From assembly GCF_056746865.1 (NCBI RefSeq), contig NZ_CM163382.1: DNA of 64,000 bases; one strand, 5' to 3'. Shown here piece by piece: positions 53,150-53,640 of the stretch. Within the stretch, counting starts at the first letter, position 1. Every line of letters begins with the position of its first letter. The translations under genes were made by a program, and so were the position numbers. Under the pieces are notes generated by a model. The model was not told the origin of the DNA, did not search any database, and saw only the letters and a program-made list of their open reading frames with translations.

Positions 53150-53640
53150 TTGGTTGTATTCGACAACCGATGCCTGATGCGCCGCTGACGCGGCTTATCA
53201 GGCCTACGGGATGAACTGAACTGTAGGTCGGATAAGACGCATAGCGTCGCATCCGACAACCGATGCCTGATGCGCCGCTGACGCGGCTTATCAGGCCTAC
53301 GGGGTGAACTGAACTGTAGGTCGGATAAGACGCATAGCGTCGCATCCGACAACCGATGCCTGATGCGCCGCTGACGCGGCTTATCAGGCCTACGGGGCGT
53401 GCTGAACTGTAGGTCGGATAAGACGTATGGCGTCGCATCCGACAACCGATGCCTGATGCGCCGCTGACGCGACTTATCAGGCCTACGGGGTGAACTGAAC
53501 TGTAGGTCGGATAAGACGCATGGCGTCGCATCCGACAACCGATGCCTGATGCGACGCTGACGCGGCTTATCAGGCCTGCGGGGTGAACTGAACTGTAGGT
53601 CGGATAAGACGCATAGCGTCGCATCCGACAACAATCTCGA
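53150..53640. repeat. tandem REP/BIME array, about 5 copies of a 93-bp unit, between prpB and prpC
   Basis: Near-identical units starting with cgacaaccgatgcctgatgcgccgctgacgcggcttatcaggcctacgg recur at 53161, 53254, 53347, 53440 and 53533. Confidence 0.85.

Follow-up and report, generated by a model that had tools for sequence, protein, structure and literature searches.

The window, by which we mean the whole 64,000-nt stretch analysed (NCBI RefSeq assembly GCF_056746865.1, contig NZ_CM163382.1), carries prpB and prpC on the plus strand, preceded by prpR in the opposite orientation and followed by prpD and prpE, all five genes scoring far above their NCBIfam equivalog cut-offs. The prpB stop codon occupies positions 53137-53139, and the 532 untranslated base pairs between it and the prpC start (53140-53671) contain a tandem array of palindromic repeats in its entirety, followed by a Shine-Dalgarno sequence of prpC's own (GAGGA, 53663-53667). 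An earlier note on this DNA had placed a repeat array between prpB and prpC at 53150-53640, and the placement was upheld, since both genes have NCBIfam matches and that interval correctly brackets the array at 53161-53632. The operon features on which the following analysis draws are:

52187-52202, plus strand: sigma-54 type -24/-12 element, TGGCAC-N5-TTGCT, upstream of prpB (reading of the sequence)
52249-53139, plus strand: prpB, 2-methylisocitrate lyase (NCBIfam NF008455: 560 bits, cut-off 353)
53672-54841, plus strand: prpC, 2-methylcitrate synthase (NCBIfam NF009006: 721 bits, cut-off 550)

The prpR-prpB control region also holds a palindrome, GTTTCAT-N10-ATGAAAC (52054-52077), and further TGAAAC repeats detected by Tandem Repeats Finder (TRF) at 52082-52112; judged from their sequence, these and the sigma-54 element would fit PrpR-dependent activation.

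Within the window, TRF resolved the array as 5.1 copies of a 93-bp period (53161-53632; 96% matches, no indels, score 874), and an independent repeat search returned four overlapping copies of 201 nt, each offset by exactly 93 nt from the next, with identities of 95-100%, both in agreement with the five tandem 93-bp copies counted in the earlier note. Each unit consists of a 36-nt Z2-type REP, a 15-nt linker, a 35-nt inverted Y-type REP and a 7-nt linker, such that a pattern search recovered ten REPs in total, five Z2-type on the plus strand alternating with five inverted Y-type. The Z2-type palindrome takes the motif form GCCTGATGCG...CTTATCAGGCCTAC, and the inverted Y-type palindrome, read on the plus strand, the form GTCGGATGCG...CTTATCCGACCTAC. 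All ten are imperfect palindromes of 35-36 nt, with a GTAG/CTAC foot in nine and CTGC in the remaining one. RNA folding gives every REP a single hairpin with mismatches, at energies between -19 and -24 kcal/mol (z between -3.9 and -4.5); for the entire prpB-prpC gap the value is -267.9 kcal/mol, with z = -11.3 relative to dinucleotide shuffles. The REP tail motif CTTATCMGGCCTAC, allowing at most one mismatch, occurs 27 times in the window, spread over three loci and including ten matches inside the array; since only 0.02 matches were expected from shuffles, the array lies far beyond chance. A further, weaker hairpin begins approximately 9 nt past the prpB stop codon on the left flank of the array; its 3' arm is CGACAACCGAT, the junction sequence that also joins the array units, and it is common to all REP-bearing alleles and to E. 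albertii. In order along the plus strand, the elements of the gap are:

53149-53171, plus strand: left-flank hairpin, GUUGGUUGU-AUUCG-ACAACCGAU (RNA fold)
53161-53632, plus strand: BIME-2 array, 5.1 x 93 bp (TRF, repeat search, sequence)
53172-53207, plus strand: Z2-type REP no. 1, GCCTGATGCGCCGCTGACGCGGCTTATCAGGCCTAC (pattern; RNA hairpin -23.8 kcal/mol)
53223-53257, minus strand: Y-type REP no. 1, inverted, GTAGGTCGGATAAGACGCATAGCGTCGCATCCGAC (pattern; RNA hairpin -19.2 kcal/mol)
53265-53300, plus strand: Z2-type REP no. 2 (pattern)
53316-53350, minus strand: Y-type REP no. 2, inverted (pattern)
53358-53393, plus strand: Z2-type REP no. 3 (pattern)
53409-53443, minus strand: Y-type REP no. 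3, inverted (pattern)
53451-53486, plus strand: Z2-type REP no. 4 (pattern)
53502-53536, minus strand: Y-type REP no. 4, inverted (pattern)
53544-53579, plus strand: Z2-type REP no. 5, with foot CTGC rather than CTAC (pattern)
53595-53629, minus strand: Y-type REP no. 5, inverted, the final element of the array (pattern)

The array can also be read as an open reading frame on the opposite strand, which raises the question of whether it encodes a protein:

53085-53624, minus strand: antisense ORF of 179 aa with an ATG start (ORF list; judged spurious)

This frame corresponds to the PGAP hypothetical protein WP_001526095.1, which many RefSeq genomes list as a CDS. Its product, however, is a 31-aa peptide repeated five times, as expected when a 93-bp period, equal to 31 codons, is translated in a single frame. 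The ORF matches no Pfam family at cut-off, overlaps prpB's 3' end on the antisense strand, and changes in length or vanishes altogether with the number of units; current annotation of K-12 places no CDS in this gap. This ORF, together with one of 276 aa, was accordingly rejected as a gene, both yielding only repeat peptides without a Pfam match at cut-off. The gene call is probably spurious, and we give the coding reading of the array next to no chance.

Bacterial interspersed mosaic elements of the BIME-2 type have been defined as Z2 and Y REPs in inverse orientation arranged in multiple tandem copies, and the number of units found at any one locus differs between strains (PMC3333891); our naming of the Z2 and Y types follows PMC3333891 and PMC4550694. 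From its sequence the array is almost certainly an E. coli BIME-2. Its palindromes fall at about 35-40 nt with GTAG/CTAC at the stem foot, Z2 and Y REPs alternate inversely, the tandem copies are conserved within the locus (96%) and joined by short linkers (15 and 7 nt), and unit number varies among E. coli strains from 0 to 7 in exact multiples of 93 bp. The element is also extragenic and dispersed, a REP-containing query having matches at 19 sites in the median E. coli genome. Compared with BIME-2 as set out in the Bachellier/Gilson/Hofnung classification, the layout, linkers, extragenic site and strain-variable unit number are alike; the linkers of the prp array are specific to the locus, and its Y arm reads GTCGGATG...TCCGAC in place of GCCGGATG...TCCGGC, with no structural difference between them.

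The Rfam family naRNA4 (RF02564, Y-l-Z2), built on the Y-l-Z2 unit of the K-12 element REP325, matched four internal units on the plus strand with scores of 61.8-67.4 bits, above the gathering score of 59.5; minus-strand and edge matches fell below this threshold. The identification as REP/BIME made in the earlier note is thus borne out by ten palindromes with GTAG/CTAC-type feet, the alternation of Z2 with inverted Y, and four naRNA4 matches above gathering. We did not file the array as naRNA4, because the Rfam match reflects shared REP sequence and not the REP325 locus: the naRNA4 gene is defined by its location in REP325 between yjdM and yjdN, and the present matches lie between prpB and prpC. 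A dedicated, locus-specific sRNA gene was similarly rejected, the only Rfam matches being to naRNA4, itself a REP unit.

REP325, which lies between yjdM and yjdN in K-12, is the closest counterpart with respect to architecture, having the same unit of inverted Y, linker, Z2 and spacer in tandem between co-oriented genes. TRF counts 5.8 copies of a 100-bp unit there, i.e. a six-unit array. The two nonetheless differ in locus, linkers and spacers, with 71% identity between units and periods of 93 and 100 bp. The earlier note's description of the prp array as more than a typical BIME therefore holds against the common two-REP BIME and not against the BIME-2 range, given that REP325 has 12 REPs, other E. 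coli strains reach 12-14 at the prpB-prpC locus, and a second array after prpE has about 15. Five units is high for the prpB-prpC locus and not for the BIME-2 class, in which REP325 has six and the array after prpE 7.6.

Strain variation in copy number, which the earlier note had suggested and proposed to examine by comparison across strains, was found. A 1501-nt query spanning the array gave matches in 5,220 of 5,426 complete E. coli genomes, and the best 60 of these 5,220 were all 100% identical over 1501 nt in one ungapped piece. The genomes with the identical five-unit sequence, at least 60 complete E. coli, include 118UI and one labelled ST69, O15:H18, and 149 records were at least 99% identical to the full 1501-nt query. 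Query coverage cannot tell unit number, because BLAST pieces re-use the repeat. Alleles that were fetched form an exact series of 0-7 units in steps of whole 93-bp units. Frequencies were estimated from two systematic samples of 60 records each, drawn at even steps along the BLAST ranking with the whole region (sample 1) or the flanks only (sample 2) as query; both samples are non-random, drawn from a database skewed to clinical lineages, and in both the top-ranked match is forced into the five-unit row and the last row is the same record, in which prpC-E is deleted. The alleles, with example strains and counts, were:

0 units: gap 44 bp (O100:H21); sample 1, 22; sample 2, 20
1 unit: gap 155 or 159 bp (O55:H7, EC2641); sample 1, 15; sample 2, 16
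2 units: gap 253 bp (LAU-OXA); sample 1, 1; sample 2, 0
3 units: gap 346 bp (WG5); sample 1, 5; sample 2, 5
4 units: gap 439 bp (K-12 MG1655); sample 1, 13; sample 2, 15
5 units: gap 532 bp (this window); sample 1, 2; sample 2, 2
6 units: gap 625 bp (H1827/12; TRF 6.1 copies); sample 1, 1; sample 2, 0
7 units: gap 718 bp (PC6; TRF 7.1 copies); sample 1, 0; sample 2, 1

Among sampled genomes, alleles with no unit (about 35%) and one unit (about 26%) predominate and those with six or seven are rare, which places five units in the upper tail at this locus, at roughly 3% of sampled genomes and of the same order of magnitude as the 149 records at 99% identity or above.

These data also bear on whether the copy number in the window could be an artefact, the true number differing through collapse or expansion during assembly. 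Such an error is conceivable in principle, as the array, at about 470 bp, exceeds typical short reads, and the 'prpB // prpC repeat' has been listed among the causes of 454 contig breaks in K-12 NCM3722 (PMC3045373). It is nevertheless extremely unlikely here: the best 60 of the 5,220 matches are independently assembled complete genomes with the identical five-unit 1501-bp sequence, and neighbouring alleles, which bear SNPs of their own lineages, are separated in length by exact multiples of 93 bp. Because at least 60 complete genomes share the 1501-nt stretch at 100%, the copy number is no quirk of a single record.

Comparison of alleles provided further information on how the series arose. 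The orthologous array of K-12 MG1655 lies between the same flanks and is built of the same 93-bp unit, in a gap whose RefSeq annotation contains no repeat features and no CDS; relative to K-12, with its four units and 439-bp gap, the window has one unit more and different SNPs in flanks and units. The left flank of the window allele (GTTGGTTGT...CGACAACCG) is common to a one-unit allele, while that of K-12 is GTTGATTGT...CGACAGCCG. Since the five-unit allele has the flank of the one-unit allele and not that of K-12, expansion occurred more than once. The 0-unit allele (44-bp gap; L004, positions 501-544) is without 9 bp, ATAACAATG, of the prpC leader (compared with window positions 53640-53671), a sequence that every allele with REPs keeps, as do the outgroups Citrobacter and Salmonella. 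This allele carries instead a short unrelated filler, GAAAAATA, and its flanks are ambiguous, with no clean excision. In E. coli SCU-171 (NZ_CP054363.1, approximately 4184691-4184934) only the first 244 nt of the query, the 3' part of prpB, found a match, with a cytosine permease adjoining; this indicates a deletion of the array together with prpC-prpE.

A PrpB scan of species-representative genomes identified 80 loci, from which prpB-prpC gap lengths and sequences were compared. E. albertii NBRC 107761 (L011, 3953-4359) has a 405-bp gap in which the 93-bp element is present as 3.5 units (seven REPs) next to the same left flank, and the insertion is thus either older than the split between E. 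albertii and E. coli or was exchanged between them. A single REP pair is found in Salmonella enterica subsp. diarizonae and arizonae (L027, L030) and in Citrobacter werkmanii and youngae (L013, L014), and one REP in C. braakii. Gaps of 0-65 bp in Pseudocitrobacter, Shimwellia, Photorhabdus, Xenorhabdus and Providencia contain no REPs. The presence of REPs in the gap of Escherichia, Salmonella and Citrobacter implies that REP occupancy is old in that group; amplification in tandem characterises Escherichia. In Morganella psychrotolerans (L070, 7885-8073; L077, 7885-8022) the prpB-prpC gap is taken up by an unrelated insert of 136-187 bp; it contains no REP, folds as a long imperfect hairpin of -42 to -61 kcal/mol, and may be a MITE-like element.

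The repeat at prpB-prpC and its variability between strains are already published (PMC3045373, PMC7360682), and the element is of a well-known kind. In the Crohn's disease isolate ZvL2 the repeat number differs from that of K-12, as established by PCR and Sanger sequencing (Pobeguts et al., PMC7360682). The same study found by RT-qPCR, in one strain, that induction of prpB exceeds that of the downstream prp genes, and, citing Simonte et al. 2017, proposes the prpB-prpC repeats as a target of RNase R. According to PMC5371410 and PMC10240344, Simonte 2017 reported degradation of prpBCDE mRNA by RNase R, with loss of rnr conferring the ability to use propionate anaerobically.

With regard to transcription, the sigma-54 type element upstream of prpB was the only promoter-like element seen that is able to drive transcription through the array. 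A scan of the prpB-prpC gap found no sigma-70-like promoter, and one of positions 52000-54000 no intrinsic terminator-like site. The hairpins of the array are followed by GGGGUGAAC or AACCGAU, with no U run directly after, and do not therefore form the combination of hairpin and U run that identifies an intrinsic (Rho-independent) terminator. Classical termination and an independent sigma-70 promoter for prpC were set aside because the scan of the gap found neither. We infer co-transcription of the array with its flanking genes from the sigma-54 promoter, which fits both the lack of an internal promoter and the polycistronic operon described in the literature.

How such an array might act is suggested by analogy to other REP-containing operons. 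In the malE-malF operon, intercistronic REPs reportedly shield the upstream message from 3' exonucleases, so that the upstream gene yields the greater amount of product (Newbury et al. 1987, Cell 48:297), the classical precedent for the role that the earlier note suggested. The two cases are alike in having REP hairpins between co-transcribed genes and differ in number, with two REPs at malE-malF and ten in the prp array. BIMEs are not known to have an effect that scales with their number of units.

REP325 offers the best experimental analogue of a dual stabiliser and attenuator, and it is to REP325 rather than to the prp array that the evidence of stabilisation and attenuation belongs. Its flanking genes, yjdM and yjdN, are co-transcribed, and deletion of the element raised expression of the downstream gene 8-10-fold and lowered upstream mRNA, by 3-fold at the native locus and approximately 160-fold when overexpressed (bioRxiv 10.64898/2026.03.23.713779). 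The same preprint describes a ladder of hairpin-ended RNAs and an attenuation that is partly bicyclomycin-sensitive and partly Rho-dependent, and stresses that what REPs do varies with context, a longer mRNA half-life not being a uniform outcome. REP hairpins are furthermore described as barriers to 3' exonucleases (PMC12306157, PMC6061677).

Based on these analogies, we propose that the array would be transcribed within the prpBCDE message from the sigma-54 promoter of prpB. Its stable hairpins would stop 3'-to-5' exonucleases such as PNPase and RNase II, allowing prpB-containing products of decay or termination to persist, and would also cause a partial, partly Rho-dependent attenuation into prpCDE, with more prpB than prpCDE message as the net outcome. 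Such a role was suggested in the earlier note; it agrees with the REP325 experiments and with the stronger induction of prpB seen by RT-qPCR (PMC7360682). RNase R, being able to digest structured RNA, would then clear the hairpin-bearing species. The units themselves may be gained and lost through unequal recombination or replication slippage between near-identical copies, possibly helped by the REP-associated transposase TnpA(REP). Taken as a whole, a BIME-2 that changes length by entire units, stabilises prpB, attenuates prpCDE and is cleared by RNase R is the explanation that we consider probable. Its functional component, a dual stabiliser and attenuator favouring prpB over prpCDE with clearing by RNase R, appears to be the most likely function, although, argued by analogy, it carries about an even chance. 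Since about one third of E. coli genomes carry no unit, any effect of the array would be modulatory and not essential.

Another conceivable contribution is ribosome stalling at the prpB stop codon. In work attributed to Liang, Rudd and Deutscher in 2015, a REP within about 15 nt of the upstream stop codon is said to lead to ribosome stalling. Stalling is unlikely at E. coli prpB because the first canonical REP (53172) starts 32 nt past the stop, only the weaker flank hairpin lying as close as about 9 nt. In the Salmonella and Citrobacter gaps described above, the REP pair starts within the prpB stop codon itself, the stop TAG being part of the GTAG foot; there, unlike in E. coli, a REP is near enough to the stop for the stalling that has been reported.

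The main rival to the proposed stabiliser and attenuator is that the array is a neutral, selfish or slippage-prone repeat in a tolerant gap, its length changing without meaningful effect on prp expression. Alleles of 0-7 units are evidently tolerated, about 35% of sampled genomes having none, and any effect is to that extent dispensable and could be neutral. More distant genera manage with REP-free gaps of 0-65 bp, BIME-2 copy number is variable at many loci (PMC3333891), and the array after prpE in the window varies too. On the other hand, the occurrence of REPs in the same gap of Escherichia, Salmonella and Citrobacter suggests retention, the equivalent REP325 shifts the expression of its flanking genes 3- to 10-fold at the native locus (bioRxiv 10.64898/2026.03.23.713779), and it is unlikely that exonucleases are unaffected by ten mRNA hairpins, each of about -20 kcal/mol. 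Neutrality is therefore a substantial minority view in our assessment, but an unlikely one.

Alternatively, the array might act at the level of DNA, as a site of gyrase binding or cleavage or a cruciform or HU site affecting supercoiling or nucleoid contacts, or as a source of naRNA4-like RNA. This would be in keeping with the four naRNA4 matches above gathering, with a model of nucleoid condensation by HU and naRNA4 (PMC4550694), and with the reported binding and cleavage of BIME-2 elements by gyrase in vivo (Espeli and Boccard 1997, as cited in PMC3333891). The Rfam matches, however, mirror shared REP sequence and not the REP325 locus, and a polymorphism of 0-7 units speaks against a fixed architectural role. 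Moreover, deletion or overexpression of REP325 leaves nucleoid volume unchanged, and REP-REP contacts are absent from Hi-C data (bioRxiv 10.64898/2026.03.23.713779, co-authored by the senior author of the naRNA4 study). This result weakens the naRNA4/HU model, and the nucleoid-condensing role of naRNA4 is now disputed. We regard a DNA-level function as very improbable, noting that it and a role in RNA are compatible and that one does not preclude the other.

A stronger version of the stabiliser and attenuator proposal can also be formulated, in which unit number acts as a heritable, stepwise dial that is adaptive in the propionate-rich gut. Were this true, each additional 93-bp unit would lower read-through into prpCDE and raise dependence on RNase R, and PrpB:PrpCDE stoichiometry would vary in a predictable way among lineages of 0, 1, 4, 5 and 7 units. 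Lag on propionate, as well as aerobic versus anaerobic propionate use, would follow unit number, and the expansion of both prp arrays (5 and 7.6 units) in the lineage of the window would be adaptive and not the product of drift. As one joint reading, we consider this combination improbable.

The main value of these findings lies in annotation and in strain comparison. The array accounts for what would otherwise be a 532-bp 'empty' gap within the prp operon and for a spurious PGAP hypothetical protein in many genomes, and it represents a known trap for short-read assembly. If the stabiliser and attenuator function holds and scales with length, the alleles of 0-7 units would constitute a natural allelic series in which BIME-2 length tunes the ratios of operon genes. 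The same series would then serve the study of RNase R dependence in propionate catabolism, as a modest extension of the REP325 work and not a new kind of element.

Also identified in the window was the second BIME-2 array referred to above (58277-58993), which begins 25 nt past the prpE stop codon, ahead of codB, and consists of 7.6 copies of a 94-bp unit containing about 15 REPs. Its unit is 79% identical to that of the prpB-prpC array. It is likewise strain-variable, a 1501-nt query spanning 837 to 1501 bp in other genomes, with approximately 1.5 units in K-12. Finally, an isolated REP pair is located downstream of prp and codB at 61745-61788, comprising a Y-type followed by an inverted Z2-type REP with tail motifs 30 nt apart.
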